Assembly: GCA_963662795.1 (NCBI GenBank)
Contig: OY759746.1
Coordinates: forward strand, 2,464,001 to 2,528,000
Source of the DNA: Spirochaetia bacterium
Lineage (GTDB): Bacteria > Spirochaetota > Spirochaetia > CADAEX01
Direction: 5' to 3'
Length of the DNA: 64,000 nt
The notes under the pieces were generated by a model. The model had not been told where the DNA came from and did not search any database. It saw nothing but the letters and a program-made list of their open reading frames with translations. Made by a program: the position numbers and the translations under genes. Positions 1,473-39,011 of this stretch are shown piece by piece. Within the stretch, counting starts at the first letter, position 1. The number at the start of each line of letters is the position of its first letter.

Positions 1473-3728
1473 TTACTGCCTAATTTCTAATGTAGCTTGA
1501 ACCATATTTGCTAATGCAGGTTTTACCTCTTCCCATTTTCTGGTTTTTAAACCGCAATCCGGATTGACCCACATCTTTGATTTATTAACAACTTGAAGTC
1601 TTTCTATTATCTGCTCTTTAAACTCATTAATTGAAGGAACCCGTGGAGAATGAATATCATATACTCCTGGCCCGATCTCATTTTTGTAATCCGTATCATG
1701 AAATATTTTTAATAGTCTATTACCACTTCTTGCTGTTTCAATCGTTATGACATCCGCATCCATCTCTTCAATTTTTTTTATAATGTCATTGAATTCACTA
1801 TAACACATATGAGTATGGATTTGTGTTTCTTTTTTTGCAGTAGAAACTGCTAATTTAAAACTAACGACAGCCCACTGCTCATATTTTTCAATTCTTTCTT
1901 TACGCAGGGGATACCCTTCTTTAAATGCTGCTTCATCAACCTGTATTATTTTTATACCGGCATTTTGTAAATCACTTATTTCATCAGACAAAGCAACAGC
2001 TATCTGCTTTGCAATCTCTGAACGGGGAATATCATTCCTTACAAATGACCAGTTAATTATTGTTACAGGTCCGGTTAGCATCCCTTTCATTTTTTTCTGA
2101 GTTTTACTCTGTGCATAGGAAATCCATTGTACAGTCATCGGTTCAGGGCGGCTTATGTCACCGTAAATTACCGGGGGCTTAACGCAGCGACTGCCATAAC
2201 TTTGCACCCATCCGTTTTTCGTAAAGTGAAACCCGTCTAAAAGCTCACCAAAGTATTCAACCATGTCATTTCTTTCAGGCTCGCCATGAACTAATACATC
2301 AAGACCAATGCTTTCTTGAAATGATATGCAATAATCAATGTATTTTTTTATTTCTGATTCATATTCCTTGTATGAAATTCGATTATTTTTAAAATCCAAT
2401 CGAATTTTACGTATTTCCGGTGTTTGTGGAAAACTGCCAATTGTTGTGGTGGGCAATGGAGGAAGATTCATTTCTTCTTTCTGGATTTTTATTCTCTCAT
2501 TGAAACTGCCTTCTCTTGATAAAACCGTAACATTTTTTAATCTGTCGCTTACTACTTGATTTGTGATTAATTTTGACGTTGCCTTTTCATTTAATACTTT
2601 CCTGTTTTGATCAATTTTACAGTTATCTTCATTTGATATAACGTTGTCATGAAAAATCCTTCCAAGAAAAGCCACTTCCTCAACTTTTTCAATAGCAAAG
2701 GCCATCCATTGTTTGATATCACTTTCCGGTTCTTTTTTTAAAGAATATGGCACATGAAGCAAAGAGCAACTTGTAGAAATTATTATCTGATCCTTTGAGA
2801 CTATCTCCGATATTTTATTAAGAAGTTCAAAAGATTTATTAAAATTATTCATCCAGATGTTTCGACCATCAACTATACCGGCAATAAGTTTTTTATTACC
2901 AATAAAGCTGAGACTATCCAGATTTTTATTTCCATGGATAAAATCAAGCCCAATACCCCAGATAGATGTATTTGCAAGCTCCTCTACAGCTTCGCAAGCA
3001 TGTTCAAAAAAGGTGTTAACAATAATTTTGATGTTTTTACTGACAAACGACAATTCTTCATAAGTATTTCTTACGAGAGAAAGTAGTTTTTCAGTTGGAT
3101 TTTTTACAAGAATTGGTTCATCAAACTGAATAAAAATTGAATTATCCAGTTTTTCAAGTATTAATAATAATTCTTTGTAAATCGAAAGCACATTATCAAA
3201 ATAAACAAAGGGGTCTTTTCCATTTGTAGTTTTTGATAAGCCAATAAAGGTGATTGGGCCAATAATATTGATTTTAGTTTTAATACCAATATCTTTTGCC
3301 TCCTGATATTCTTTAACAAGTTTTTCTGGATTTAGCTGAAATTTTATACTATCATCCAGTTCTGGAACGATATAATGATAGTTTGTATTAAACCATTTAG
3401 TCATTTCCATTGCGACGGTAGTAGCATTTCCCCTCGCCATAGCAAAATAGCGTTCAGCATAATCTTTAATATTGCGAAATCTTTCGGGGATAGCATTAAG
3501 CATCAGTGATGTATCCAGCATATTATCATAATAGCTGAAATCATTTGAACTTATAAAATCTATGCCCTTATTTTTTTGCTCAACCCAATGTTTTTTCCGT
3601 AATTCTCGTGCAACCTTTTCAAGTTCTTTTAATGTGGTTTTGTTGGACCAGTAATTTTCCAACGCATTCTTAAGTTCTCTGTTTTCCCCGATTCTGGGAA
3701 AACCAGTAATCATCGTTTTGTTTTTCAT
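1473..3728 (-). CDS. metE: Cobalamin-independent methionine synthase
   Basis: 751 aa; GFPRIG, MTKWFNTNYHYIVPE, TTTIGSFPQT, HGEPERNDMVEYF, HTHMCYS, WVNPDCGLKTR. Confidence 0.98.
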   Translation of the reverse strand: MKNKTMITGFPRIGENRELKNALENYWSNKTTLKELEKVARELRKKHWVEQKNKGIDFISSNDFSYYDNMLDTSLMLNAIPERFRNIKDYAERYFAMARGNATTVAMEMTKWFNTNYHYIVPELDDSIKFQLNPEKLVKEYQEAKDIGIKTKINIIGPITFIGLSKTTNGKDPFVYFDNVLSIYKELLLILEKLDNSIFIQFDEPILVKNPTEKLLSLVRNTYEELSFVSKNIKIIVNTFFEHACEAVEELANTSIWGIGLDFIHGNKNLDSLSFIGNKKLIAGIVDGRNIWMNNFNKSFELLNKISEIVSKDQIIISTSCSLLHVPYSLKKEPESDIKQWMAFAIEKVEEVAFLGRIFHDNVISNEDNCKIDQNRKVLNEKATSKLITNQVVSDRLKNVTVLSREGSFNERIKIQKEEMNLPPLPTTTIGSFPQTPEIRKIRLDFKNNRISYKEYESEIKKYIDYCISFQESIGLDVLVHGEPERNDMVEYFGELLDGFHFTKNGWVQSYGSRCVKPPVIYGDISRPEPMTVQWISYAQSKTQKKMKGMLTGPVTIINWSFVRNDIPRSEIAKQIAVALSDEISDLQNAGIKIIQVDEAAFKEGYPLRKERIEKYEQWAVVSFKLAVSTAKKETQIHTHMCYSEFNDIIKKIEEMDADVITIETARSGNRLLKIFHDTDYKNEIGPGVYDIHSPRVPSINEFKEQIIERLQVVNKSKMWVNPDCGLKTRKWEEVKPALANMVQATLEIRQ

Positions 3729-3769
3729 TGTATCTCCTTTTGTTTACGCGACAAAATTTGGTTATTACT

Positions 3770-3858
3770 ACCATGGCATTCGGACTTAGAGATTGTTTAA
3801 AAGCGTCTCAACACCGTAGCGCGACTGTGCCTGATTCTCACAGGTCTTCCCCATATAA
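3770..3858 (-). ncRNA. Cobalamin riboswitch (compact, class II-like)
   Basis: Minus strand reads ATGGGGAAGACCTGTGAGAATCAGGCACAGTCGCGCTACGGTG...AAGTCCGAATGCCAT, i.e. B12-element core motifs, in the metE leader. Confidence 0.85.
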
Positions 3859-4112
3859 GAAAGTAATGTTTATTCTTGTATTAAATCTATCGTGTTTTGT
3901 CAATTATTATGTCCTTTCATCCTCCATCTTTCTATTTTTTGAGGCTAAGGATAGCCGGGCCGTCTTATTATATCTTCTGCACCTATTGTGTAAAACTCTT
4001 ATCCTTCGCAATATTGTGTCTATCTTGCAATCATACACCCGGGATAGGGATATAAATAGCCTTATTTATATTGCAACTGAATCCGTAATAAGTAAAATAT
4101 AGAGAGGCAAAA

Positions 4113-7287: not shown

Positions 7288-8311
7288 TAAACTGCGCCCT
7301 TTTGTCAACACACTTTTGACAAGTGTTTAAGGTGTATCACGCCGCCTGTTCGCCAGGCTGACAGCCTGAAATGATTCATGTATTTCATCAGGAGTCCTGT
7401 ATTCAAGACTCTGGTGGAAACGCCTGGTGTTAGAAAAATTAAAATATTGCGTTACTCCTTCCTTAAGTTCTTTAACTGTTTCATAATGTTTTATATAAAT
7501 ATCTTCGTACTTGAGTGATCTCCAGAGCCTTTCGACAAAAATATTATCAGGCGCACGGTTTTTCCCGTCCATGCTTATTCTTATGCCATAATCATGCAGT
7601 ACTTCTGTCCAGCAGGGTGAATTAAATTGGCAGCCCTGATCAGTGTTGAAAATTGCAGCCACTCCATACTTTTCAATTGTTTCATGTAAGCAGTTTGCAA
7701 ATATTGGCGCATCAAGTGTATTGGTTATTATCCAGTTAAGCACTTTGCGTGAATAAAGATCTATTACCGCCATCAGGTACACAGGCCCTGATGGCAGTTT
7801 GATATAAGTCAAATCAGCAGCCCAGACCTGATTCGGGTATCTTATTATTTCCCCTTCAAGCAGATACGGATATTTCTTGCTTTCCTGCCTTGCTTTTGAA
7901 AGATTCTCTCCGGGGAATATTGCCATAAGCCCTGCTTTTCTCATGATTCTGCGTATCTGTTTCCGGGATACACTTAAGCCTTTACTATTGATCTCAAGAG
8001 CTATTTTTCTATAGCCATAAAATGGCAGGAGAATTAATGTTTCCCTTATCTTTTTAAGTATCTCAATATCTTTTTCCTCAACTTTCCTCCTGCTTTTTCC
8101 ATAGGCTGATCTGGTTTGGATGTACGTCATACTTTTTAGCAATTTCCTGTAAGGTTAGTTCCTCTCGAAGTGCATCAAGTGTTACTTTTACCTTGAATGC
8201 CTTGTCAAATCTTTGTCTTTTTTTCATTGTGTTTTCCGCTCCTTTAATTATAGCGGATTTTACACCTTAATCATACAGGTTTTTTCTGTCCTGTTTTCCG
8301 GGCTCATTATA
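7288..8311 (-). mobile_element. IS3-family element, internally deleted (OrfA C-terminus and OrfB N-terminus missing)
   Basis: Left end TATAATGAGCCCGGAAAACAGGACA; right end TTGACAAAAGGGCGCAGTTTA; OrfA start MKKRQRFDKAFKVKV...HPNQISLWKKQ at 8228; OrfB with W.ADLTY, NTDQGCQF, ERLWRSLKYE. Confidence 0.9.
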
Positions 8312-9344: not shown

Positions 9345-10619
9345 CACAGCTGTCCAAAATAATCATAGCAATACTAACTGACCAGGAATTTCCCTTTGAA
9401 TTGAATCACGTTCAAAAGGTTCATTTAACCAAAGCCAAAGATCTTTCCTTGAAAATAGAACTGTCGGAAGCAGAGATGCTAAGCTGTATATTGTCCATCC
9501 TAATGTAGATAAAAATCTCATATAGCTCAGTAACAAGTGGGTAATGAGTGCAGATGCAATTTGGATCATTAGAGCATTTCTGGAAGTGCCCACAAAGCTT
9601 TTTATTTTCAGTTTTTGTTTCATTGCCTGAAAAAATATTTCAATCTGCCATCGATCTTTATAAATAGCACCAACGATATCAGGAGGCCATTCAAAATTAT
9701 TTGTCAAAATAACAATATATTTACCGGATTCCGAATCTTTTATCCTGATCCTTCGTAGTTTCAGAGAACACTTTTTAATTGAGTAAAAACCGGTAAAACT
9801 GATTATCTGATCAGATGCAACATCTTTAAAATCTTTCACTTTTTTTCTTTCAAGTATTCTATACTTTGCATTTTTCTTTAGTCTCGTGACAAAGTAAGTA
9901 CCTTTAGTACAAAGACTTGCAAAGAAGGAGTAATCATTGTAACCACGATCAAAGGTTACTACATCTCCTTTTTTGAAAGGTATTTCGGAAACTGCAGTTA
10001 GATCATTAGCCTTTGCATCAGAGAGAACAGCAAATACAGGAATATATCCTGTATGATCAAACTTCACATGTAATTTAATTCCACCTTTGGTCTTTCTAAA
10101 CTTTGCCCAGTTGAATACAGAAAGACATAAATCTATAGTTGTGGAATCAATACTGTAGAGTGGATTCTTGAACTTGAATTTATGCCTGGGTGCTGCGGGC
10201 AGTATTTTATTCAGGAGAAAATAGAAAATATCTCCGAACATTTTGGAGCTTCTGTTTTTATTAGCATAACTTAATGTTGATCTGCTAACATGCTGGATAC
10301 CAAGATGATAATGACTTTTTGCCTGAGAGTTTAATGCATTAGTAATACTCCGGAGATTATCCAACCCTGATAACTGGGCAAAAATCATTGCTACAAAATG
10401 GGTCCATGAAGAAAATCCCTTTGCTGATTTTTCTGCTTGATGACGATTTACAAAATTCTGAAATTCAAGTCTCGGTATTATTTGAAGAATTTGATTTAAT
10501 ATGGTAGATTTATAACTCACTGCCTGATCTCCTTTGTTTATAATGATTTAGCTGGCAAGGCTTGTTTCATTATAGACGGGATTTCAGGCAATTAATAGTA
10601 TTTGTTTTGGACAGCTATG
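9345..10619 (-). mobile_element. IS4-family element, 1275 bp
   Basis: Terminal IRs CACAGCTGTCCAAAATAA / TTGTTTTGGACAGCTATG; no matching target duplication on the flanks. Confidence 0.92.
9363..10520 (-). CDS. IS4-family transposase (DUF4372 + DDE)
   Basis: SRSTLSYAN, IDSTTIDL, KGGIKLH, FDRGY, YKDRWQIEIFF (YREK-like motif). Confidence 0.93.
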   Translation of the reverse strand: MSYKSTILNQILQIIPRLEFQNFVNRHQAEKSAKGFSSWTHFVAMIFAQLSGLDNLRSITNALNSQAKSHYHLGIQHVSRSTLSYANKNRSSKMFGDIFYFLLNKILPAAPRHKFKFKNPLYSIDSTTIDLCLSVFNWAKFRKTKGGIKLHVKFDHTGYIPVFAVLSDAKANDLTAVSEIPFKKGDVVTFDRGYNDYSFFASLCTKGTYFVTRLKKNAKYRILERKKVKDFKDVASDQIISFTGFYSIKKCSLKLRRIRIKDSESGKYIVILTNNFEWPPDIVGAIYKDRWQIEIFFQAMKQKLKIKSFVGTSRNALMIQIASALITHLLLSYMRFLSTLGWTIYSLASLLPTVLFSRKDLWLWLNEPFERDSIQREIPGQLVLL

Positions 10620-11575
<956 letters not shown>

Positions 11576-14990: not shown

Positions 14991-15605
14991 TTAATCATCA
15001 CTTAATGCTAATTTAGCAGCTAGTCCAATAAATAACAGTCCAAATGACTGCTGAATTCTATTCGCAATTACTGCTGAATTGAGGATTAATTGCTTGAAGT
15101 AATTTGCAAGAAGTCCATAAAGTATAAATATAATGAGTGTCATAATCATGAAGAATGCTCCTAGTAATATTATCTGAGGAAGATAGCTTTTATATATACT
15201 GTCAATAAACTGAGGTAGAAAAGAAAAGAAAAAAAGAGATAATTTTGGGTTTAATAAATTAATTAAAATCCCCTTTAAAAAGATTTTTACTTTATTATTT
15301 TCTTTGATTCCTTCAGTAATCTGAATATTACTTTTATTTCTGATCATGCCTATACCAAGATAGAAAAGGTAAGCGACACCTATTATTTTGATTATTTTAA
15401 AAAGTATTGAGCTCGCATAAAATATTGCAGATAAGCCGATCATACTTGTAATTAAGTGAGGGATTATTCCTGCAGTACAACCAAATGCTGCAGTAATACT
15501 ATCTCTTTTATTTCCTGAGATAGCAATTGAAACAGTATAAATAACGCCAGTCCCTGGCGTTAAAATTACAATTAAGCTTGTTAATATGAATCCATAGCTT
15601 ATCAT
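14991..15605 (-). CDS. LysE/RhtB family translocator
   Basis: LTPGTG, G.AYL.YLG, GILINLLNPK..LFF..FLPQF. Confidence 0.92.
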   Translation of the reverse strand: MISYGFILTSLIVILTPGTGVIYTVSIAISGNKRDSITAAFGCTAGIIPHLITSMIGLSAIFYASSILFKIIKIIGVAYLFYLGIGMIRNKSNIQITEGIKENNKVKIFLKGILINLLNPKLSLFFFSFLPQFIDSIYKSYLPQIILLGAFFMIMTLIIFILYGLLANYFKQLILNSAVIANRIQQSFGLLFIGLAAKLALSDD

Positions 15606-15955
15606 ATAACCCTCATTGAATAAAATTATTACTTATTCTACACCCGCGCGGAGAAAATGGAAAGGAAATATTATTTCAGGCTATGGAGAAGGGGATGTCA
15701 GGAAATTGTTCTATTTGTACAATTCATCTATTTTCACTTATATCCTGTTGTTTGTCATTTCTATAATTTTTGGAAAATGTTTCTATACAAATTCCTTTTT
15801 TCTTTATCTTATTTTGTAACATTTCATCTCTAGCATCATCTAATATTTCTACTAACACTAGAATTGTAGTTTCCATGTTTCAACTTTTATTAAATATTCT
15901 GTTTCAAGATTATTGACTAATAATCAAGACTTGTAATAATATGAGCTTAATTTTT

Positions 15956-16048
15956 AAGGGGAGTTCGGAACATTGCCGGGCTGAGAGGAAGGCACAAAGG
16001 GCCTTCGACCCATTGAACCTGATCTGGGTAATGCCAGCGAAGGGAAGG
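15956..16048 (+). ncRNA. TPP riboswitch (THI element)
   Basis: GGGGAG...CTGAGAG...GACCCATTGAACCTGATCTGGGTAATGCCAGCGAAGGGA upstream of ykoF/E/D-C. Confidence 0.96.
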
Positions 16049-16150
16049 GTTTTCGCATTCAATGCGGAATTTCAGTGAAACTGCTTGCAACATGCGGTTG
16101 TTTGAATTCAGGTACATGTCTATCTCCCCCTAATTCAAGGGGGTACACAT

Positions 16151-25875: not shown

Positions 25876-25969
25876 TTTTTTTCATTGTGTTTTCCGCTCT
25901 TTTAATTATAGCGGGTTTTACACCTTAATCATACAGTTTTTTTATGTCTTGTTTTCTGGGCTCATTATA
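25876..25969 (-). mobile_element. Isolated left end of the IS3 element seen at 7288-8311
   Basis: About 90 bp near-identical to 8218-8311, including the terminal IR, RBS and start ATG. Confidence 0.85.
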
Positions 25970-27845: not shown

Positions 27846-28000
27846 GGTACACATTGGCCTTATGGTCGTAATACTCTCTCACTATGATCCGGATGATTTC
27901 TCACCAGTTTTTTGTGTAAAAAAGGTTAAGGAGTATCGAGGTTTTGAATGATAATAAAGACTTCTGTTTGAAGCATATTCTGAAATGATATTGATATTTA

Positions 28001-28897
28001 TTATATTTGTGTTGAGCTGTTTAATAAAAAATCAACAAAATATTTTATATTGTTATTCTCTGCTTTAATTTTAGGTAAAACTAGAAGGAATTTTCTATTG
28101 ATTCGAACATTATTAATATTAATTTTTTTAAATTGATTTTTTTCAGTATCATTATTTAAAGCTAGCTCTGACACTATTCCATATCCAACTCCGCTTAATA
28201 CAGCTGATTTTACTGATTCAGCATTTCCCATAACTAAAGCTATTTTAAGATTGTCAGTATTTATATTATTCTGTTTTAAATATCTTTCAAATATTTCTCT
28301 TGTTCCGGATCCTTTTTCTCTTATTACTATTGGTTCTGAAAGTAAGTCATCAATTTCAATAAAAGGTTTAGTACACCATACATGATGTAAATTTACTATA
28401 ACAATAATTTCATCATCGAAAAATGGAATAGTAACATGATTGTTAAAATCAATTGGTTCGCTAATAATTGCAATATCCATGCTCAACTCTTTAAGTGATT
28501 TTACAAGGAAAGCATTATCTCCAGCAAGCATGGTAATATTAACGTTTGGATACTTAATTTTAAAATTACCAAGTATTTTTGGAAGAAGATATTTCCCAAG
28601 AACGGTTGATACTCCAATTGTGATTGCGCCTTTTATATTTATACTTACATTGCAAACCGCATTTTTAGCTAATTCGTATTGTTTTAAAATATTTTCAGCA
28701 TGTTCATACAATACTTTACCTGGTTCTGTTAGCTTTATTATTGATCCATTTCTATCAAAAAGCCTTATGCCGTATTCTTCTTCAAGTTTTTTAATTTGTA
28801 TTGTAACAGCTGGTTGTGTCATAAATAGTATGCTTGCCGCTTTTGAAAAGCTATTTTCTCTCGCAACAGTAACAAATGTCTTTAATTTATAATCCAT
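28001..28897 (-). CDS. LysR-family regulator (CysL-like), divergent from the mutase operon
   Basis: SFSKAA..L.MTQPAVT.QIK.LEE, REKGSGTR, VKSAV..G.G. Confidence 0.95.
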   Translation of the reverse strand: MDYKLKTFVTVARENSFSKAASILFMTQPAVTIQIKKLEEEYGIRLFDRNGSIIKLTEPGKVLYEHAENILKQYELAKNAVCNVSINIKGAITIGVSTVLGKYLLPKILGNFKIKYPNVNITMLAGDNAFLVKSLKELSMDIAIISEPIDFNNHVTIPFFDDEIIVIVNLHHVWCTKPFIEIDDLLSEPIVIREKGSGTREIFERYLKQNNINTDNLKIALVMGNAESVKSAVLSGVGYGIVSELALNNDTEKNQFKKININNVRINRKFLLVLPKIKAENNNIKYFVDFLLNSSTQI

Positions 28898-29070
28898 AAC
28901 TATAAATATATTTTATACCAAAATTGCAAATAGTCAAATTAAATTTAATTTAATTAGACTTAAAATAGATATTTATAAATAAAAATCAATTTATATCAAC
29001 AAAAACATATAAATATAACAATGATATAAATATTTATTATACCTATATAAATATTTATAATTTGATTTAT
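28898..29070. promoter_or_regulatory. Divergent AT-rich promoter region with putative LysR boxes
   Basis: Repeated ATATAAATATTTAT at about 29024 and 29046 (ATA-N9-TAT / T-N11-A type); the region is very AT-rich, so specificity is low. Confidence 0.4.
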
Positions 29071-29124
29071 TTTTACTTTCATATAAATAATTAGTCACCA
29101 ACAAGAAAATTGAAAGAGGAACAA

Positions 29125-30000
29125 ATGTATAGTAAATCAGTTTTATTAAGAGAAAAAATTAATTCGAATAAACTAATTATTGGGATAGGAGCCAGAGATG
29201 CTCTTGAAGCAAAATTAATTGAAGAAGCTAATTTTGATTTCGTGTGGTCAAGTAGTTTAGGTGTTTCGGCTTCTTATTGTATTCCTGATGCTAGTTTAAT
29301 ATCCATGAGCCAATATCTATCAGCAGCCAGGTCAATGAATGAAGTAATATCAATACCTGTAATTGCTGATTGTGATACAGGGTATGGTAATATTAATAAT
29401 TTAATTTATGCTGTTAAACTATTTGAAGATTCTGATATCGCAGGAATTTGTATTGAAGATAAAAAATTCCCCAAAGATAATAGTCTTCTTGAAGGGGGAA
29501 GACAAGAACTTCTAGATATAAATGAATTTTCTTCTAAAATAAGAGCTGCTAAAGATACTCAGAAAAGTGACTCTTTTTGTGTTATTGCAAGATTAGAGTC
29601 ATTTATTGCTGGCTGGGGAATAGAAGATGCACTTGAAAGAGCATATAGTTATGAAAAAGCTGGTGCGGATTTGATTCTTGTGCATTCAAAATTAAATGTT
29701 CCGGATGAAATTATAAATTTTACAAATAATTGGAAAGGTAAAATACCTATAGTTATTGTTCCTACCAATTATTACAGTTTTACTGAAGAACAGGTACAGG
29801 CATTTAAAAAAATAAAAATAGTTATATATGCTAATCAGATACTTAGAAAATCTATTTTAGCGACACAAGTGATTCTCAAAGAAATAAAAAATAGTAAAGG
29901 GATAAATAGTGTTCAAAATAAAATATCACCTGTATCAGAAATATTCCGATTACAAGGTGTACCTGAAATGAAAGCTCAAGAAAAAAAATATAAAACTTGA
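29125..30000 (+). CDS. Isocitrate lyase/PEP mutase superfamily enzyme (PEP mutase or phosphonopyruvate hydrolase-like)
   Basis: IPVIADCDTGYGN, IEDKKFPKDNSL (EDK-X5-NS), VIARLE, HSK, IVPT.Y, IYANQ; ATG 29125 has GAGGA RBS. Confidence 0.92.
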   Translation: MYSKSVLLREKINSNKLIIGIGARDALEAKLIEEANFDFVWSSSLGVSASYCIPDASLISMSQYLSAARSMNEVISIPVIADCDTGYGNINNLIYAVKLFEDSDIAGICIEDKKFPKDNSLLEGGRQELLDINEFSSKIRAAKDTQKSDSFCVIARLESFIAGWGIEDALERAYSYEKAGADLILVHSKLNVPDEIINFTNNWKGKIPIVIVPTNYYSFTEEQVQAFKKIKIVIYANQILRKSILATQVILKEIKNSKGINSVQNKISPVSEIFRLQGVPEMKAQEKKYKT

Positions 30001-30061
30001 TGATAAATTATAAGAATGTAAAATAAATGTTTTGAAGAATCTCGACTAAATGGAGTATTAA

Positions 30062-31390
30062 ATGATAAGCGAATTGGCAATTGAACTTAATGAGAAAATA
30101 GATGGAACAGCTCTTTATCATCAGCTTTCAGACTTTGGGAAAAGAATATATTTCCCAAAGGGAACAAAAAAACAATCTGAAGAAGCTAAAAAATATGCAT
30201 ACAAATATAATGCAACAGAGGGTATGGCTTTTGCAGAGGATCACCCATTTGTATTGAAAAACATCAGAAATTATTTACAGGAATTAAATATTGAAGATGT
30301 TGTTACTTATGCCCCTATCCTGGGTCTTCCTTCCTTAAGGGAATTATGGAAAAAGGAGCTTTACAGAAAAAACAACTCACTTGAAAATAAAAATATTTCA
30401 AAGCCAATTGTAACAGGTGGACTTACCCATGGCCTATCTATTGCTGGCGATCTTTTTACTGACGAAAATACAGTTTTAGTAATTCCTGATCTTTTCTGGC
30501 CTAATTATGAAATTATATATAAGGAAAGAAGAAACTGCTTAATTAAAACATATAATTTCTTTGAAAAGGGGAAAATTGATTTTGAAAGTTTTAAAAAAAC
30601 AATAAGAGAAATTGAAAAGAATAAAAAAATATTTACAATTTTCAACTTTCCCCATAATCCGACTGGATATTCTCTGACCCATAGAGAAGTATCTGAAATA
30701 AAAGAGATTATGAAAGCTTTTGCTGATGATGGTTATAAAATTACAGTCCTTCTTGATGATGCATATTTTGGACTTGTATATGAGGATAACATATCAAGTG
30801 AATCACTCTTTTCCATATTTGCTGATCTTCATAAGAATATTATAGCCATAAAGGTTGATGGTGCAAGTAAAGAATACTATGGGTGGGGTTTACGGGTTGG
30901 TTTTATAACATTTTCTTCTAAAGGATTTGGAAATGAACACTATGCTGCACTTGAAAATAAACTATCAGGATTAATTAGATCATCAATTTCAAACTCATCT
31001 AAGATTTCACAACTTATTCTTGAAAAAATGATTATGGACAAAGAGACAGAGAAAGAAAAGAAAAAATATTTTGCAGATCTTAAAAACCGGTATAAAGCAG
31101 TAAAAAAAATTATTAGCGTATACAGCGAAAGTATACTCTCTCCATTCCCTTTTAATTCAGGTTATTTTATGTGTTTTACTGTTAAAACAGGAAAAGCAGA
31201 AATCTTAAGAAAATATCTTCTTGAACATTATGGTATCGGTACAACATCAATGCAGAATAAATATCTGAGAGTTGCATTCGCTTGTGTTGATGAAAAAAAT
31301 ATAAAAAATCTTTATGAAATAATTTATAAAGCATCCATGGAGTACCTGGATGAAAATATTGCAATAAAAAATACGGAGGTACAAAAATGA
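30062..31390 (+). CDS. PLP-dependent aminotransferase class I/II (aspartate aminotransferase-like), copy 1
   Basis: NFPHNPTGY, DDAYFG, KVDGASKE (PLP lysine), WGLRVGF, LRVAF. Confidence 0.92.
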   Translation: MISELAIELNEKIDGTALYHQLSDFGKRIYFPKGTKKQSEEAKKYAYKYNATEGMAFAEDHPFVLKNIRNYLQELNIEDVVTYAPILGLPSLRELWKKELYRKNNSLENKNISKPIVTGGLTHGLSIAGDLFTDENTVLVIPDLFWPNYEIIYKERRNCLIKTYNFFEKGKIDFESFKKTIREIEKNKKIFTIFNFPHNPTGYSLTHREVSEIKEIMKAFADDGYKITVLLDDAYFGLVYEDNISSESLFSIFADLHKNIIAIKVDGASKEYYGWGLRVGFITFSSKGFGNEHYAALENKLSGLIRSSISNSSKISQLILEKMIMDKETEKEKKKYFADLKNRYKAVKKIISVYSESILSPFPFNSGYFMCFTVKTGKAEILRKYLLEHYGIGTTSMQNKYLRVAFACVDEKNIKNLYEIIYKASMEYLDENIAIKNTEVQK

Positions 31391-32420
31391 ACAATCTGGC
31401 AATTGAACTTAATAAAAAAATTGAAGGGACAGCTCTTTATAACCAACTTTCAGACTTCGGGAAAAGAATTTACTTCCCTAAAGATACTAAGATACAGTCA
31501 GCAGAAGCGAAAGAACTGGCCACTAAATATAATGCAACAGAGGGTATGGCATTTAAAGACCATAAACTAATTTCAATTTCTTCAATTACACAATTCTTTT
31601 CTGATCTTGATCTTGAAGAATCAATAAGTTATGCAGGATCTGCAGGAGATGCTGAACTGAGGGATTTATGGGAAAAAGATCTTAAAAGGAAAAATCCTTC
31701 TTTAAATAAAATTGAATTTTCAAAACCGATAGTTGTTGCTGGACTTACACACGGTCTTTCTGTTGTTGGAGATTTGTTTATTGATAACTCAACAACAATA
31801 TTACTTCCTTCTGTTTACTGGCCCAATTATGACCTTATATTCGGGGAAAAATATCGTGCTGAAATAAAAACATATAATATCCACTCTGAAGGACATCTTG
31901 ATATTGAAAGCCTGGTTAAAGCGATTAGGGCAGAAAGGAAAGATAAAAAAATTGCTATCATTTTAAATTTTCCTCAAAATCCGACTGGATATTCACCTCT
32001 TAAGTTAGAAGCTGAAGAATTAAAACAGGAATTCTTTAAACTAGCAGAAGAAGGATACAAACTTCTGATAATTCACGATGATGCTTATTACGGTTTATTC
32101 TATGAAGAAGATATATATCCCGAGTCACTTTTTTCGATATTTTCTAATTTACATGAGAATATTTTAGCCTTGAAAATAGACGGTCCGACTAAAGAGTATT
32201 TTGTTTGGGGATTTAGGGTTGGTTTTATTTCTATTGGAGCAAAAGGATTAACACGTGAACAGTATCAGGTAATTGAAACAAAAATAATGGCAGCAATAAG
32301 ATGCTCAATTTCAACTGCATCAAAACCAGCCCAGTCAATAATAATAAAAGCATTAAAAGAAAGAACCACTGAAGAAGAACAAAAGAAGGGGGGTGATGTA
32401 ATTAAGAAAAGATATGAAAT

Positions 32421-33695
32421 CATAGGTGTCCAAAACAAGGACTATTAATTGCCTGAAATCCCAACTATAATGAATTAAGCTTGGACGGCTAATTCTTTAC
32501 AGGAAAAGGAAATCAGGCAATGAGTTACAATAATACCATTTTAAAACAAATTCTACAAATAATTCCGAGACATGAATTTGAAAAATCTGTAAAAAAACAT
32601 AAAGGGGACTTTGCTTCCAAAGGTTTTACCTGTTGGCAGCATTTTGTCTCCATGCTCTTTGCACAACTTTCAGGACAGACCGGGTTAAGAGGCATTGAAA
32701 ACTCTTTTGAATCAATCAGTAACCACCTTTATCATATGGGTGTAAAAAAGGTAAAACGCTCTACATTATCTTACGCAAATAATAATAGAAGCTGTGAAGT
32801 TTATGAAAATGTTTTCACTGATCTTCTTGATAAGATATTATCCATGAAGAGAGCGCATAAACATAAATTTAAAAATCCTCTTTACAGTGTTGATGCATCA
32901 ACTATTGACTTGTGTTTAAATCTCTTTCCATGGGCAAATTTCAGAAAATATAAAGGCGGAATAAAACTTAATGTAAAACTTGACCATAGTGGATATATTC
33001 CAGCTTTTGTATCAGTTACAACTGCAAAAACACATGAAGTCAATTCCTTGAAAAAAATGGCTTTCAACAAAGGCGATGTCATCACGTTTGATCGTGGTTA
33101 TACTGACTTTAAATTATTCGCAAATTATTGTAATACCGGTATTTATTTTGTTACCAGGTTAAAAAAGAATGCTGATTATAAAATTGTCCAGAGAAAAGAT
33201 ACCTCCTCCTTTAAAAATATTACATCTGATCAGATCATAGAAATGAAAGGATTTTACACCAGTAAAAAATGCCCGTTAAAATTAAGACGAATCAGAAGCA
33301 GAGATCCTGAAACCGGTAAATATATTGTAATTCTTACCAATAATTTCCTTTGGTCTCCAACAACAATTGCTGCTGTTTACAAAGACAGATGGCAGATTGA
33401 AATATTTTTTAAAACTATCAAACAGAACCTCAAGATCAAGAAATTCTTTGGTACTTCCAGAAATGCTGTAATGACACAAATCTGGATTGCCCTAATTGCT
33501 TTTCTGTTACTTCAGTTCCTTAAAATGTTTTCATGTAGAAAATGGACTCATTTTTCACTGATGAAATTGATTCCTGTAATACTGACATCAAGAAAAGATA
33601 TCTGGACTGTTCTCAATAAACCGCCTTCAGAACAGACTAAAAAAACTAGTTTCAATCTTCAACTGGAGCTGTTATGATTGTTTTGGACACCTATG
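32421..33695 (+). mobile_element. IS4-family element, 1275 bp, with 9-bp target-site duplication
   Basis: Perfect 18-bp IR CATAGGTGTCCAAAACAA / TTGTTTTGGACACCTATG; ATATGAAAT at 32412-32420 and 33696-33704. Confidence 0.97.
32520..33677 (+). CDS. IS4-family transposase (intact)
   Basis: Paralogue of 9363-10520; DASTIDL, FDRGY, YKDRWQIEIFFK. Confidence 0.95.
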   Translation: MSYNNTILKQILQIIPRHEFEKSVKKHKGDFASKGFTCWQHFVSMLFAQLSGQTGLRGIENSFESISNHLYHMGVKKVKRSTLSYANNNRSCEVYENVFTDLLDKILSMKRAHKHKFKNPLYSVDASTIDLCLNLFPWANFRKYKGGIKLNVKLDHSGYIPAFVSVTTAKTHEVNSLKKMAFNKGDVITFDRGYTDFKLFANYCNTGIYFVTRLKKNADYKIVQRKDTSSFKNITSDQIIEMKGFYTSKKCPLKLRRIRSRDPETGKYIVILTNNFLWSPTTIAAVYKDRWQIEIFFKTIKQNLKIKKFFGTSRNAVMTQIWIALIAFLLLQFLKMFSCRKWTHFSLMKLIPVILTSRKDIWTVLNKPPSEQTKKTSFNLQLELL

Positions 33696-34266
33696 ATATG
33701 AAATAGTGAAAAAAATTATAGACAAGAGTGAGTTCAACGGATCAATAAAACCGGCGCCATTTAACTCCGGTTACTTTATGTGCTTTGAATTAATTGGAAA
33801 AAGTGCTGAAAATATTAGAAAACATCTTTTAAACGAGTATGGAATCGGGGTGATTTCATTTAAAGACAAATACTTGAGAGTCGCTTATTCCTGTATTGAT
33901 AAATGTGATATAGAAAATTTGATTACTACAATAATCAAAACAGCAGAGGAAATAGAATGATCTTTCCTGTGCTGGTACAATATCGGGACAATTTCTGGAG
34001 ACGGAAAATTGTTGTCAATATAAATCAAATAATATATGTCGCAGTGTATAAAAGCTTACTCACTTTTTTAAGTATATCTATCGGCATAAATAAGCACGAG
34101 TTAAAAATACATAATCCATATATTGATCCCGGTATTTCCAGACTTGAACAGCCGAATGGTTTGTTTAAAAGAAAATAAACAGGAGGGGTGACTAAAAAAC
34201 TTATAAGAAATGTGAAACATGAATGTTTCAGGAAACACAGAAAATATTATTTTATAAGGAGATAAT

Positions 34267-35550
34267 ATGAAAAAGAAAAAAAGTATAGCAACAATTATTA
34301 TGCTGGCAATGTTGGCTGGTATCATCGTAGGTATCATTTTAAATGGGTTTGCTGATACGCCTTTTGTAAAGACAGTTCTGACTGGTTTTATTTTTAAATT
34401 GGGGGGCATGGGTTTTACCTATATGATTTCAATGATAGTTGTTCCAATTGTTTTATTTTCTTTGATAGTTGGAACTTCCGATATGGGAGATGTTGTCAGA
34501 CTTGGTAGAATTGGGACAAAAACAATTGGTTGGTATCTGACGACAACTACGGTTGCTATTATTATTGGTTTAACCATATCTTTAATGATTAAACCTGGAC
34601 TAGGATTCGATTTGACCAATTATGCACAAACAATTGAGTCTTACAAAGCGAAAAGTGGATCGCCTGCATTGGTAGACGTTCTTTTAAACATTATTCCCAA
34701 GAACCCATTTAAGGCTTTATCTGAAGGGGTGATGCTTCAAGTTATCTTTTTTGCAATGATGATAGGCACAGCATTAACTATTCTTGGAGAAAAAACATCA
34801 AGTATAAGGAAAGTATTTGTAGAGGGGAATGAAGTGGTTATGCAGATTGTATGGATCGTTATGAAAGCTGCTCCATTTGGCGTATTCTGCCTAACTGCTG
34901 ATACATTTACAAGACTTGGAATTGCTGCGTTTAAACCTTTGGCGATTTATATGATCACTGTTGTCATTGCTCTGTTTATCCACGCTATTGTGGTATATGG
35001 ATCCTTACTCACTGCAGTGGCTAAGCTGAATCCTATTCAGTTTCTTAAGAATTTTGCTCCCGCCATTTCTGTTGCCTTTTCTACTGCAAGCAGTAATGCC
35101 ACCTTACCAGTGGCCCTTGACTCTGTAACCAACAGGTGTGGTGTTCACAAGGATATCAGTTCTTTCACTATTCCGCTTGGTGCTACAATAAATATGGATG
35201 GGTCAGCTATTTCCATGAGCTGCCAGGCCCTTTTTCTCGCTCAAGCCTACGGTATTGAACTTACTGTTCTTCAACTTGCAATGATAGTTGTAACTGCTAC
35301 ACTGGCGTCCATAGGTAATGCAGGGGTTCCTTCAGCGTCTCTAATACTCTTATCTGCGATTCTCATGCAGATTGGGGTTCCTGTTGAAGCTGTTGGTATT
35401 CTCCTAGGTGTTGACAGAATCCTTAGTATGACTAGAACAACAATAAATGTTTCTGGTGATGCAATAGTTTCAATAATTGTTGCAAAATCAGAAGGCTTGT
35501 TTGATATTGATATTTTTAAAAAGAAAAATGTAATTAAAGAGGCAGTATAA
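34267..35550 (+). CDS. Dicarboxylate/amino acid:cation symporter (DAACS/GltP family)
   Basis: IIPKNPF, AFSTASSNATLP, PLGATINMDGS, ASIG.AGVP, GVDRILSMTRT..NVSGD. Confidence 0.95.
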   Translation: MKKKKSIATIIMLAMLAGIIVGIILNGFADTPFVKTVLTGFIFKLGGMGFTYMISMIVVPIVLFSLIVGTSDMGDVVRLGRIGTKTIGWYLTTTTVAIIIGLTISLMIKPGLGFDLTNYAQTIESYKAKSGSPALVDVLLNIIPKNPFKALSEGVMLQVIFFAMMIGTALTILGEKTSSIRKVFVEGNEVVMQIVWIVMKAAPFGVFCLTADTFTRLGIAAFKPLAIYMITVVIALFIHAIVVYGSLLTAVAKLNPIQFLKNFAPAISVAFSTASSNATLPVALDSVTNRCGVHKDISSFTIPLGATINMDGSAISMSCQALFLAQAYGIELTVLQLAMIVVTATLASIGNAGVPSASLILLSAILMQIGVPVEAVGILLGVDRILSMTRTTINVSGDAIVSIIVAKSEGLFDIDIFKKKNVIKEAV

Positions 35551-35714
35551 AAATACAGGTTAAATAGCTTGTAATCACTGTAAATAATCAACTGGTTTAT
35601 TATAAATACATTCATTATAAACCAGTTTTTTAAAAAGATTTCGAAGTCCGTATTGTAATATTTTCTACTAATAACGCTATTGAGAATAAATGACAAAAAA
35701 TATAAATTAAGTTC

Positions 35715-35749
35715 AACGGGCAGAACGGATAGGGTTTTGCCCGTTTTTT
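35715..35749 (+). terminator. Intrinsic terminator after the symporter
   Basis: AACGGGCAGAAC-loop-GTTTTGCCCGTT followed by TTTT. Confidence 0.8.
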
Positions 35750-36582
35750 ATCCAAGCTTTTTATATTCAATAATATTACTTTTATCTGAATATGTCTCAT
35801 CAATTTTTTCTGCGATAATACTTAGATTTTCCGGTGTTATATGAGTATAGATAGCCTGTGTACCCTTATTCCCAGGTATTTCTTCACATATAACTCAGAG
35901 CAGCCTGCGAGCAGGAGATTGGTATTCAGGGAATGCCGGAAGCTCTGAGGAGTAAGGTTTCTCTCTAAATAATTGATCTTCAAATTTTCGATTGCTTTTA
36001 TAAAATTTTTTCTCCACCATGTTTCTCCCAGGTGTAATCCTTTAATATTAAAAACATAGTTACCTGCTTTTTTCCATGCCCTGTCTATTGTGCAGTATTT
36101 CCCCTGTATCTGTTCCCATTAAAGAGCAAGAATTTCTGACGCCTTACGTCTGGTAAAGGCTGCGAATCTGAATATCTGATATGCAAGTAAAGCAGTCCAT
36201 TTTTTGTAATCAGTCAGGTCCGCAAATCAATGATATGGCCTCTTTTATATCTCTTAACAGCATATCAGCAAATTTGCCGGTATAAACGTACTTTGAAATC
36301 CACCTGTTCAATTTTTCAACATATCCCTGGCTATAGTTCGTTCCTTCCATGGATAGTCTTGGTCTTCTGGGACTGGTTTCATATTTAAGATATTTAGCTG
36401 AGTAATTACGAAAAGTTACAGATGAATAAGTGGTAAGAGAATCAATAAAATCCTTTATAACTCTTTTTCCTCACCAATTTTTGAAGTTCCGCAGGATTTT
36501 AATTTTCTTTTCCCGGTTAGCTGATCTTCATAGTTAAAGAACAGTGTTCCATAACCTTTCTTTTGAATGGATCAGGATACAC
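35748..36582 (-). pseudogene. Tyrosine recombinase/phage integrase pseudogene
   Basis: Manual translation: FAAFTRRKASEILAL*WEQI (box I), LTPQSFRHSLNTNLLLAG...YLG and TQAIYTH (box II); AGGAGG + GTG at 36582; multiple stops and frameshifts; absent from the ORF track. Confidence 0.85.
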
Positions 36583-36675
36583 TTTTTTACCTCCTGATAT
36601 CTATTTGCTATGCATTCGCTGACAAATAACGTCGATAAAAAAGTGTAAATCCTTATCTTGTAATAAAATATTTAT

Positions 36676-36749
36676 TATCCCGGACGCGAATCGAACGCAT
36701 GACCTGTTGCTTAGGAGGCAACCGCTCTATCCTACTGAGCTACCGGGAC
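36676..36749 (-). tRNA. tRNA-Arg (anticodon CCT), no encoded CCA
   Basis: GTCCCGGTAGCTCAGTAGGATAGAGCGGTTGCCTCCTAAGCAACAGGTCATGCGTTCGATTCGCGTCCGGGATA folds as a cloverleaf. Confidence 0.97.
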
Positions 36750-36820
36750 ACTTGATAGTGTTATACTATAATGAATTACCCTGAGTGTCAATTAATTGAC
36801 ATCAAATATTGCGGATACTG

Positions 36821-36857
36821 AAAAAAAGGGGAGACCGCTGAAAGCAGCTTCCCCCCT
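36821..36857 (-). terminator. Intrinsic terminator of the glutamine synthetase gene
   Basis: GGGGAAGCTGCT-TTC-AGCGGTCTCCCC followed by TTTTTT on the minus strand. Confidence 0.8.
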
Positions 36858-36881
36858 AATGTTTTTATAGATAATAAAAAG

Positions 36882-39011
36882 TTAAATCTTGAAAAGAAGG
36901 TCAACATAGGTCGGGAATGGCCAATCCTCTTTCCCTGTCATTTTTTCGAGTGTATCTGCATATAATCTTACCCTGCTCATTAAAGGGAATACCTTTTCAT
37001 GATACGTTTTTGCCTGTGAAAGATGATCTTCAACAGATTTGGCATTTAAGAGTTCTTTTGCAAGCAGATCTGTGCTGTATTTAAGTTCCTCAAAATTCTT
37101 CATCATCTGCTCAAGCATTTCCCTCTGTTCGCTTATCCCGTTTTTAATGCCGGCAGCAGTCATGGAGTTTATAATATCTGCACATTTTCCGGTATATTTA
37201 AGTACGGCAGGGAAAATTTCAAGTCTTACCATATCTATCATTACGCCGGCTTCAATATTTATCTGTTTGCTGTATTTTTCAAGATATATAGTATACCGCG
37301 ACTCAAGTTCTTCCCTGGTCATTATGCTGTATTTTGTAAAAAGTTTTATTGAAGATTCACTGAAAAGCGCCGGTATTGACTCAACGGTTGACTTTATATT
37401 GGGAAGGCCCCTTTTTTCAGCTTCTTTTAACCATTCTTCCGCATATCCGTTGCCGTTGAAAATTATTTTTTTATGGTTTTTGTAAGTCCGTGCGACAATC
37501 TCTTTTATTGTGCCTGTAATATCCTTTGAGTTTTCAAGCTCTGATGCAAATTCAGACAGCACATCAGCAACTACTGCGTTAAGGACTGTATTCGGCATTG
37601 AGATTGAGCCGGAGGAAGGGACCATCCTGAATTCAAACTTGTTGCCTGTAAAAGCAAACGGGGAGGTCCTGTTTCTGTCTGTTGAGTCCTTTGGAAGCTT
37701 TGGAAGCGAGTTTACTCCAAGTTCGAGGTAATTTCCGTTTGTTGATTTTACCGGCTTGTTTTCAGAGAGCTTCTCCAGAATATCGCTGAGTTCAGAACCC
37801 AGGAATATTGAGATAATCGCAGGAGGAGCTTCATTTGCGCCCAGCCTGTGGTCATTTCCTGTATTGCTTGCGGACCACCTCAAAAGCGGAGCATATATGT
37901 CTACGGCCCTGATAATGGCAGAGAGGAATATGAGAAACTGTATATTCTGATGCGGGCTGTCGCCAGGGTCAAGCAGGTTTATCCCGTCATCTGTGCTTAA
38001 TGACCAGTTATTGTGCTTGCCTGATCCGTTAACGCCGGCAAAAGGTTTTTCATGCAGGAGCGCTACAAGATTATGTCTGTTCGCGACTTTCTGGATTACC
38101 TCCATGGTGAGCTGATTATGGTCGGTTGCTACATTTACAGTTGTAAAGATCGGCGCTATCTCAAACTGATTTGGAGCAACTTCGTTGTGCTGTGTTTTTG
38201 CGGAAATGCCAAGTCTCCAGAGTTCATAGTTTAGCTCTCTCATAAAGTCTGCAACGCGGAGCTTGAGCGGACCAAAATAATGGTCCTCCATTTCCTGCCC
38301 TTTTGCCGGCATGGCGCCGAATAGAGTTCTGCCTGTAAGGAAAAGATCCATCCTTTTGTCGAAAAATGATTTATCCACAAGAAAATATTCCTGTTCAGCT
38401 CCGGCTGTCGGGATAACCTTTTCCGATGTTGTGTTTCCAAGAATCCGGACAACACGCATGGCTTCCCTGTTTATGACTTCCATTGATTTAAGGAGCGGGA
38501 CTTTCTTGTCAAGAGCTTCGCCTGTATAGGCAAAAAAAGCTGTTGGAATTTTAAGTGTTACACCTGTGTTGTCATTCATGAGGAATGCGGGTGATGTTGT
38601 ATCCCATGCTGTATAGCCTCTGGCCTCAAATGTCGCCCTGAGTCCTCCGCTTGGAAAAGATGAGGCATCAGGTTCTCCCTTTATGAGTTCCTTGCCTGAA
38701 AATTCAAGTATAACTTTTCCATCCGCTGTGGGTGATATAAAAGAGTCGTGTTTTTCTGCCGTTAAACCAGTCATGGGCTGAAACCAGTGTGTGTAGTGTG
38801 TTGCTCCCTTTTCAATAGCCCAGTCTTTCATTGTGCTTGCAACTACTTCCGCAACTTCGAGAGAGAGCGTCTTGTTCCCTTTCTGTACTTCCTTGAGCTC
38901 CCTGTAAATGCTTTTGGGCAGTCTTGTCCGCATTACTGCATCGTTAAAACAGTTTTCCCCGTATACTTCGCTTAACGGGGTTTTGATGAAATCAATAGTT
39001 TTTTCTTCCAT
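36882..39011 (-). CDS. glnA: Glutamine synthetase type III
   Basis: 709 aa; HYTHWFQP.TG.TAEKHDSF, EPDASSFPSGGLR.TFEARGY, HEKPFAGVNGSGKHNNWS, DRNRTSPFAFTGNKFEFR. Confidence 0.97.
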   Translation of the reverse strand: MEEKTIDFIKTPLSEVYGENCFNDAVMRTRLPKSIYRELKEVQKGNKTLSLEVAEVVASTMKDWAIEKGATHYTHWFQPMTGLTAEKHDSFISPTADGKVILEFSGKELIKGEPDASSFPSGGLRATFEARGYTAWDTTSPAFLMNDNTGVTLKIPTAFFAYTGEALDKKVPLLKSMEVINREAMRVVRILGNTTSEKVIPTAGAEQEYFLVDKSFFDKRMDLFLTGRTLFGAMPAKGQEMEDHYFGPLKLRVADFMRELNYELWRLGISAKTQHNEVAPNQFEIAPIFTTVNVATDHNQLTMEVIQKVANRHNLVALLHEKPFAGVNGSGKHNNWSLSTDDGINLLDPGDSPHQNIQFLIFLSAIIRAVDIYAPLLRWSASNTGNDHRLGANEAPPAIISIFLGSELSDILEKLSENKPVKSTNGNYLELGVNSLPKLPKDSTDRNRTSPFAFTGNKFEFRMVPSSGSISMPNTVLNAVVADVLSEFASELENSKDITGTIKEIVARTYKNHKKIIFNGNGYAEEWLKEAEKRGLPNIKSTVESIPALFSESSIKLFTKYSIMTREELESRYTIYLEKYSKQINIEAGVMIDMVRLEIFPAVLKYTGKCADIINSMTAAGIKNGISEQREMLEQMMKNFEELKYSTDLLAKELLNAKSVEDHLSQAKTYHEKVFPLMSRVRLYADTLEKMTGKEDWPFPTYVDLLFKI

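Follow-up and report, generated by a model that had tools for sequence, protein, structure and literature searches.

A candidate pal-like unit for catabolism of a three-carbon phosphonate on a low-G+C island of a spirochaete genome

The pal cluster of Variovorax consists of palR, palCDE, palB and palA and is induced by phosphonoalanine (PnAla) and phosphonopyruvate (PnPy) (PMC3266647, PMC10574752). Genes for phosphonopyruvate hydrolase (PPH, PalA) are regarded as rare, and nearly all reports of them concern Pseudomonadota (PMC10574752, PMC3266647); a review places 99% of 201 palA genomes in that phylum (PMC10574752). In our comparisons the pal layout was found in V. paradoxus and in Rhizobium and Sinorhizobium plasmids. 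Here we analyse a gene unit of a Spirochaetia bacterium, located in a stretch of 64,000 nucleotides (assembly GCA_963662795.1, contig OY759746.1, positions 2,464,001 to 2,528,000), which we call the window and whose numbering is used for all coordinates. A LysR-family regulator is divergent from genes for an enzyme of the phosphoenolpyruvate (PEP) mutase/PPH subfamily, two aminotransferases (AT1 and AT2) and a DAACS cation symporter. Judged from sequence, the unit is best read as an island for pal-like catabolism under LysR control, whose three-carbon phosphonate substrate would be processed via PnPy, a reading to which we give a probability of roughly 0.6.

The PEP-mutase-family enzyme (29125–30000, plus strand, 291 aa, PF13714) is 45–66% identical to members of the Ppm/PPH subfamily. 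Its open reading frame (ORF) opens at 29110, but the ATG at 29125 is the likely start because AAGAGG lies upstream of it and the product then matches a 291-aa database form (P0002). The enzyme scores 293.0 bits against the mutase model TIGR02320 (cut-off 319.55) and 273.4 bits against the hydrolase (PalA) model TIGR02321 (cut-off 374.4), below the cut-off in both cases. Among solved structures it is about as close to PPH (PDB: 2dua, 253 bits) as to the PEP mutases of Mytilus (PDB: 1m1b, 242 bits) and Streptomyces (PDB: 5unc, 239 bits). In a maximum-likelihood tree of 89 rows, rooted on Escherichia coli PrpB, the enzyme lies in a 50-row clade (SH-aLRT 99). Three pal-cluster enzymes and every one of the 20 dehydrogenase-linked rows fall inside this clade, and the 32 decarboxylase-linked or biosynthetic rows all fall outside it. 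One of the pal-cluster enzymes, a V. paradoxus PalA, is all but identical to the crystallised hydrolase 2dua (one difference in 290 residues), and the enzyme of the window shares a clade with a characterised PPH, apart from the decarboxylase-linked mutases.

Seven alignment positions part the clade from the mutases, and the enzyme agrees with the clade at six of them. The Asp directly before the N/T residue, present in 94% of 49 clade rows and in none of the 32 mutase rows, is found in the enzyme; the clade reads FPKD[N/T]S where the mutases read FPK[V/T/I/L]NS. The enzyme also carries R74, Y100 and K234, which the mutases lack, and its GRQEL loop is hydrolase-like. At the position of PPH Thr118 it has Asn (EDKKFPKDNS) and not the Thr of PalA. 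Most authors credit the Asn122-to-Thr change with hydrolysis, whereas a review doubts that this is the real cause (PMC7916636). Both Asn and Thr types occur within the 50-row clade, the Thr type in two separate subgroups, one of them that of PalA. The same review gives two gating loops (PMC7916636); compared by eye with these, the gating loop of the enzyme, DNSLLEGGRQELLD, has 8 of 14 residues in common with PPH and 7 of 14 with the Mytilus mutase, and as a sequence appears to be a hybrid of the two that does not discriminate. The complete motif, IEDKKFPKDNS, contains EDK-X5-NS. Since most enzymes of the non-decarboxylase clade retain EDKX5NS, the motif is no guide here either, and the warning given in an earlier note on this DNA, that the motif should not be taken as a mark of biosynthesis, is borne out; published mining pipelines use EDKX5NS as a biosynthetic filter (PMC8942020, PMC12723261). 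The residues leave both last steps in place, hydrolysis of PnPy or a mutase run in reverse to PEP, and sequence cannot decide between them.

Gene neighbourhoods were compared at 160 related loci, 80 from genomes and 80 from metagenomes (L151–L230). None of the 39 closest genome loci (L010–L048, 49–65% identity) has a phosphonopyruvate decarboxylase (Ppd) as a neighbour, compared with 29 of the 41 others. Importers recur beside the close relatives, namely ABC systems with substrate-binding proteins, TctC/TctA and MFS carriers, and so do LysR regulators. A bridging arrangement is that of L026, which has a LysR regulator, the enzyme, a PalB-like aminotransferase and an ABC importer; its enzyme is of the Asn type and 63% identical to that of the window, and its gene order places an Asn-type enzyme in a canonical pal layout. 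In the close group the recurrent neighbour is a NAD_binding_2/DUF1932 dehydrogenase of ~305 aa (20 of 80 genome loci). The 80 metagenome loci include 57 with this dehydrogenase, 16 with a LysR of the window type, 15 with TctC and 10 with an MFS carrier. A PEP-mutase-like gene followed directly by the dehydrogenase gene is widespread across several phyla (for example L010:2216–8280, L013:1510–7673 and L020:6731–12972). Such dehydrogenase-linked clusters may process a hydroxy-phosphonate, for example phosphonolactate; no published function for them was found in literature searches, which yielded only papers on phosphonate biosynthesis and on the known pal and 2-aminoethylphosphonate degradation routes, and reviews. 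The clearest Ppd-like neighbours among the close relatives are two ORFs, 37–40% identical to the Ppd of the genome, on a metagenome contig of 6007 bases (L220) that carries a LysR and a PEP-mutase-like gene 47% and 56% identical to those of the window; L186 has two weaker Ppd-like neighbours (30% identity).

The genome itself has a true Ppd beside a true pepM at C1:586820–589215, 1.9 Mb from the unit. The Ppd-linked mutase paralogue scores 405.3 bits against TIGR02320, and this is an ordinary biosynthetic locus. PhnJ was not found in the genome and no phosphonatase scored above its cut-off, so the unit would be the only recognisable route for carbon–phosphorus (C–P) cleavage among those searched. 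A third PEP-mutase paralogue (G000:C1:1470102–1470959; L008/L096), encoded in a frame of 444 aa, falls slightly short of the cut-off at 318.7 bits, and its motif EDKASFSRNE has Glu in place of the usual Ser after Asn.

The LysR regulator (28001–28897, minus strand, with HTH_1 and LysR_substrate domains in Pfam) points away from the operon and has its closest compared relatives beside PEP-mutase-like genes. It is 45–46% identical to the regulators of L012, L013 and L035, which are Spirochaetes and Desulfobacterales metagenome-assembled genomes, and 40–41% identical to those of L020, L026 and L033, compared with 30% for its best paralogue in its own genome. It is not an orthologue of palR: the match to the Variovorax pal regulator is 37.5% over 72 aa only, and that regulator matches a GcvA-like model and other NCBIfam models than the window LysR. 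The latter scores 265.6 bits against NF040786 (cut-off 250) and 171 bits against phn_lysR TIGR03339 (cut-off 341). NF040786, named ‘selenium metabolism-associated LysR’, is above its cut-off for the window LysR and for three of four relatives checked (L012, L013, L035); the name does not fit the contexts seen and may mislead for this subgroup. The divergent, AT-rich control region (28898–29124) has repeated palindromes, TATAAATATTTAT at 29025–29037 and 29047–29059 with related copies at 28901–28917 and 28961–28977. These are putative LysR sites on sequence; the region has ~25% G+C, so chance palindromes are likely. A promoter scan gave 53 sites compared with 45.6 ± 6.8 in shuffles, which is not above chance.

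Downstream of the enzyme lie the two aminotransferase genes. AT1 (30062–31390, plus strand, 442 aa) is intact and of the PRK08637/NF006388 type (495.8 bits against NF006388, cut-off 301). Its nearest solved relative is an Asp/Tyr/Phe aminotransferase (PDB: 2x5f, 314 bits). The start of AT2 (31387) overlaps the stop of AT1 by 4 bases and the two proteins are 51% identical. AT2 is split into an N-terminal part (31387–32420, plus strand, residues 1 to ~345, NF006388 positions 1–349 of 433) and a C-terminal part (33705–33960, plus strand, positions 350–431 of 433). AT1 is 66% identical to the database protein P0123; the pieces of AT2 match P0125, the N-terminal part at 78% and the C-terminal part at 65% (P0125 residues 346–428). 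The database has P0123 and P0125 each on one contig only, 3296 bases long, which suggests that the pair of aminotransferases travels together. Beyond the fold, neither gene is related to palB: AT1 is 26% identical to the Variovorax pal aminotransferase over 110 aa, whereas the aminotransferases of L026 and of a genome of the same family (G013, see below) are 44–46% identical to a pal-cluster aminotransferase. Nearly every genome of the class has a member of the NF006388/PRK08637 family (38 of 41, 37–49% identity), and a third copy, presumably housekeeping, lies elsewhere in the same genome (C1:3663117–3664385).

The element that splits AT2 is an IS4-family insertion sequence (IS) of 1275 bp (32421–33695, plus strand) with perfect 18-nt terminal inverted repeats and a transposase gene at 32520–33677 (NF033592, 280 bits). 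It is flanked by a 9-bp target duplication, ATATGAAAT, at 32412–32420 and 33696–33704. Removal of the element and one duplicate copy by a scripted join restores an open frame of 429 aa; a gap-free alignment of 428 aa connects it with P0125, an intact relative (75% identity). The IS-free form exists: in the public run X4, which comes from another study under another organism label, a contig of 60,412 bases joins 32410 directly to 33695. This contig spans 27000–32410 and then 33695–37000 with nine differing letters in total, and exactly the element is skipped. The perfect duplication and the IS-free form at ~99.9% identity indicate a recent, strain-specific insertion into an ancestral unit of five intact genes. 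The earlier note had described twin aminotransferases in a five-gene unit closed by a terminator. There are indeed two genes of one family, and the genes, their coordinates and the hairpin discussed below were recovered from ORFs, Pfam and NCBIfam; in this genome, however, the second aminotransferase is disrupted, so that the stretch holds six ORFs instead of five. The element has 23 matches in the genome, 15 of them at 99–100% identity over the whole query. Many of its copies lie between 1.9 and 2.2 Mb of the genome, and a diverged relative (68–75%) is present at 9363–10628.

The last gene of the unit encodes the DAACS (SDF) symporter (34267–35550, plus strand, PF00375, 385.6 bits). The best solved relative of this carrier is an aspartate transporter (PDB: 9bgz, 332 bits), and it scores 240.9 bits against the DctA model NF002461 (cut-off 513). 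In DAACS carriers the Asp at the position of GltPh D394 binds the α-amino group of aspartate (a rule given in PMC12668577). Transmembrane helix 8 of the carrier reads GVDRILSMTRT, with Ser at D394 and the Arg of R397 kept; the corresponding segments are ..ILDM.RT in GltP and FMSEAR in DctA, E. coli GltP having Asp and E. coli DctA Ser at D394. The carrier accordingly has Ser + Arg and not the Asp394 + Arg397 pair of the GltP/GltPh amino-acid carriers. The replacement of the α-amino-binding Asp by Ser speaks against PnAla being imported simply as a mimic of aspartate. The sequence suggests instead that the transported species is not recognised via an α-amino group, which would suit PnPy or a similar phosphono acid with an oxo or hydroxy group; another possibility is a binding site re-tuned to the doubly charged phosphonate of PnAla.

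Alignment of 20 spirochaete DAACS proteins gave Ser at D394 in two, the other 18 having Asp (17) or Gly (1). The two are the carriers linked to a PEP-mutase-family gene, that of the window and that of G013 (Ser in 2 of 2, compared with 0 of 18 other spirochaete carriers), and they are 54% identical to each other. In the G013 operon (L146, G013:C100 59–4670) the carrier gene is last, after genes for a PalB-like aminotransferase, 46% identical to the one of the Sinorhizobium pal cluster, and for a canonical PEP mutase (407 bits, above the cut-off); an RpiR-type regulator is divergent from it. The window and G013 thus each pair the unusual Ser carrier with an aminotransferase and a Ppm/PPH enzyme whose genes are not orthologous between the two, and this ties the carrier to the pathway. 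The G013 operon might put a true mutase to catabolic use, or it might be a minimal operon for making PnAla. Two further homologues of the carrier (G282 and G196, 49–51%) have uninformative neighbours (alcohol dehydrogenase, histidine kinases, TruB, RNase Y).

In the pathway that we propose, the DAACS carrier would import the acid and a PRK08637-type aminotransferase would interconvert PnAla and PnPy, a step for which AT1 would be available in this strain and AT2 inactivated. The enzyme of the PalA side would then break the C–P bond, converting PnPy to pyruvate and phosphate or to PEP. The divergent LysR would activate the operon, PnPy or PnAla being the probable signal. The earlier proposal of a pal-like uptake and catabolism operon is partly upheld, by the PPH clade of the enzyme, its importer-linked relatives and the recurring LysR, but not in the sense of orthologous parts. 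Only the C–P enzyme has a related pal counterpart; the aminotransferase, regulator and transporter are not orthologous to palB, palR and palCDE, whose places they take.

Several observations weigh against this catabolic reading. The enzyme keeps the Asn of the mutases and falls short of both curated models. The approximately unbiased (AU) test does not reject a topology that unites the remaining 49 clade members to the exclusion of the enzyme (p 0.15, log-likelihood difference 25.3), and the row of the enzyme has a deviant amino-acid composition. Conserved synteny of the structural genes, for which the earlier note had proposed a search, did not emerge: a PRK08637-type aminotransferase or a DAACS carrier stands beside the enzyme in 0 of the 160 related loci, so the exact gene combination is without synteny support save for the G013 analogue. 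In that analogue the Ser carrier stands beside a canonical mutase and a PalB/PnaA-like aminotransferase, and a PepM/PnaA pair has been shown experimentally to make PnAla in Streptomyces (PMC11867202). The Ser at D394 predicts a substrate that lacks the α-amino group, PnPy over PnAla, and since the carrier fits PnPy better than PnAla the role of the aminotransferase becomes less obvious. AT2 is broken in this genome, and its IS may also have a polar effect on expression of the carrier gene.

A variant of the catabolic reading, which we regard as a tentative possibility, takes the enzyme for a PEP mutase working catabolically. Here the Asn-type members of the PalA side and the mutase of G013 would run PnPy to PEP, an anaerobic spirochaete would ferment PnAla or PnPy with the phosphoryl group conserved as ATP, and the Thr-type hydrolases would be later offshoots. 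No PEP mutase used catabolically was described in the literature searched, which left most subscription papers outside; the same search returned no description of Asn-type PalA relatives, nor of any pal-like cluster whose carrier is a DAACS protein or whose aminotransferases are of the PRK08637 type. A PEP mutase was reportedly purified in 1992 from a phosphonate-utilising Pseudomonas gladioli.

The opposite direction, biosynthesis of PnAla, is the main rival and a serious one, although clearly less probable than catabolism. The enzyme would be a working PEP mutase, the aminotransferase would pull the unfavourable conversion of PEP via PnPy to PnAla in the manner of PnaD/PnaA, and the carrier would serve for a co-substrate or for the product. 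The retained EDKX5NS with its Asn and the aminotransferase gene directly downstream of the enzyme agree with this. Neighbourhoods with Ppm and a PF00155 aminotransferase have been so classified (9.2% of 434; PMC8942020), and PnaA/PepM coupling was demonstrated in vitro (PMC11867202). The analogue in G013 combines a canonical mutase with a PalB/PnaA-like aminotransferase, and the genome makes phosphonates, by its gene content, at the Ppd and pepM locus elsewhere. The window enzyme, however, groups with the hydrolase and with importer-linked relatives and with none of the 32 decarboxylase-linked or biosynthetic rows; a substrate-type LysR is divergent from the operon; and the sole transporter is a DAACS symporter, of a family known for uptake. 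Of the enzymes that can draw the mutase reaction forward (Ppd, a PnaA-type aminotransferase, an FrbC-type synthase or a VlpB-type reductase), Ppd is absent from the window, and the aminotransferases present are outside the PnaA/PalB family. No ligase, nucleotidyltransferase or lipid or glycan transfer gene was found near the unit (~8 kb on each side), nor were phosphonate tailoring domains found in the genes within ~8 kb on either side. The earlier note had stated that the whole window lacks a phosphonopyruvate decarboxylase, a ligase, a nucleotidyltransferase and an exporter; this holds for the decarboxylase, but a LysE-type exporter is encoded at 14991–15605, ~12 kb from the unit.

An acidic C3/C4 substrate other than a phosphonate is improbable. 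Under this explanation cysteate would be converted to sulfopyruvate, or else aspartate would yield oxaloacetate, which the enzyme would then decarboxylate or hydrolyse. It would suit a carrier and aminotransferases of aspartate-type families, the Ser that the carrier shares with the DctA dicarboxylate carrier, and a superfamily that includes oxaloacetate-acting enzymes among the PDB matches. Yet the enzyme, at 45–66% identity to Ppm/PPH proteins, reaches only 60–81 bits with methylisocitrate lyase, oxaloacetate decarboxylase and their like. Where it aligns with the metal and phosphoryl sites of the Mytilus mutase its residues look conserved (roles in part after PMC7916636), and in the G013 analogue the corresponding enzyme is a canonical PEP mutase. 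There is similarly little to suggest that the unit is a decaying, non-functional remnant eroded by IS activity in this strain: AT2 is split by an IS with at least 15 near-identical copies in the genome, and IS481 and IS5 transposases with an rve fragment lie to the left and an integrase-like remnant to the right, but the other four genes are intact and free of internal stops, the insertion is recent, and AT1 could alone cover transamination.

The unit has the features of an island. G+C is 25–33% across 28000–34000 and rises to 40–47% beyond ~37600. The left flank has IS481- and IS5-family transposases and an rve fragment. On the right, the hairpin that closes the unit resembles an intrinsic terminator (35715–35745, plus strand, 12 pairs, followed by a T-run to 35754); it is the longest such stem of the region and lies 165 nt past the stop of the symporter gene, although terminator-like sites in the region as a whole are not above chance (four found, 4.5 expected from shuffles). 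The sequence at 35750–36670 is fragmented into short frames, among them a tentative, degraded integrase-like fragment between the unit and the tRNA (35840–36118, minus strand; Phage_integrase, E=0.0019, 18.4 bits, under the 27.1-bit cut-off), and tRNA-Arg(CCT) (36675–36750, minus strand) is the likely right-hand border. Of 400 further genomes of the class, only two were found to have a close homologue of the PEP-mutase-family enzyme (61%), and the 19 genomes of the family yielded none. The sequence most likely represents a horizontally acquired, strain-specific, low-GC island adjoining tRNA-Arg. Elsewhere in the window there is a direct repeat of 94 nt (94% identity, 8218–8311 and 25876–25969, 17.7 kb apart), one copy of which is beside an IS481-type transposase; the repeats may be the ends of another mobile element. 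A thiamine pyrophosphate riboswitch (15947–16062) precedes a block of ECF/ABC-type transporter genes of higher G+C (16–20 kb), and an adenosylcobalamin riboswitch is present at 3723–3879 on the minus strand.

The unit draws attention to a large, multi-phylum clade on the hydrolase side of the tree, whose genes adjoin importers and LysR regulators and whose members mostly keep EDKX5NS. If this clade is catabolic, surveys overcount phosphonate producers and undercount consumers; were the catabolic-mutase variant true, mining by EDKX5NS would count the whole catabolic clade as phosphonate producers. If its members are mutases run in reverse, they would constitute an energy-conserving route of C–P cleavage, of which the literature searched holds no description. 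The Asp-to-Ser variant of the carrier may mark transport of phosphono acids, and the existence of one strain that carries the IS in AT2 and another that lacks it offers a natural comparison for asking why two aminotransferases are kept.

Compared with known systems, the unit is closest in plan to the pal cluster of Variovorax sp. Pal2. Both have a LysR-type regulator by genes for a transporter, an aminotransferase and a Ppm/PPH-subfamily enzyme, and the enzymes share a clade. The window enzyme differs in having Asn rather than Thr at the PPH-118 position and in scoring below the TIGR02321 cut-off. The aminotransferases of the window are of the PRK08637 type, its LysR is of another subfamily, its transporter is a DAACS symporter in place of a palCDE-type ABC importer, and the host is a spirochaete. 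With PEP mutase (Ppm/PepM/AepX) and the PnaD/PnaA pair the unit has in common EDKX5NS and an aminotransferase gene downstream. Unlike PEP mutase, its enzyme is below the TIGR02320 cut-off, lies outside all decarboxylase-linked groups of the tree, has no decarboxylase nearby and carries the Asp of the clade together with R74, Y100 and K234; its aminotransferases are of another family than PnaA/PalB. The dehydrogenase-linked clusters contain the closest relatives of the window enzyme (53–66% identity) and of its LysR, but the feeder there is a dehydrogenase, here an aminotransferase, and the carriers differ. Like DctA and GltP/GltPh, the window carrier has the full-length SDF fold and keeps the Arg of R397, the NMDG motif and the Asn of N401. 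It is nearest to the aspartate carriers overall, yet has a DctA-like Ser at D394, and by its sequence appears to be a hybrid that fits neither the GltP nor the DctA class cleanly.

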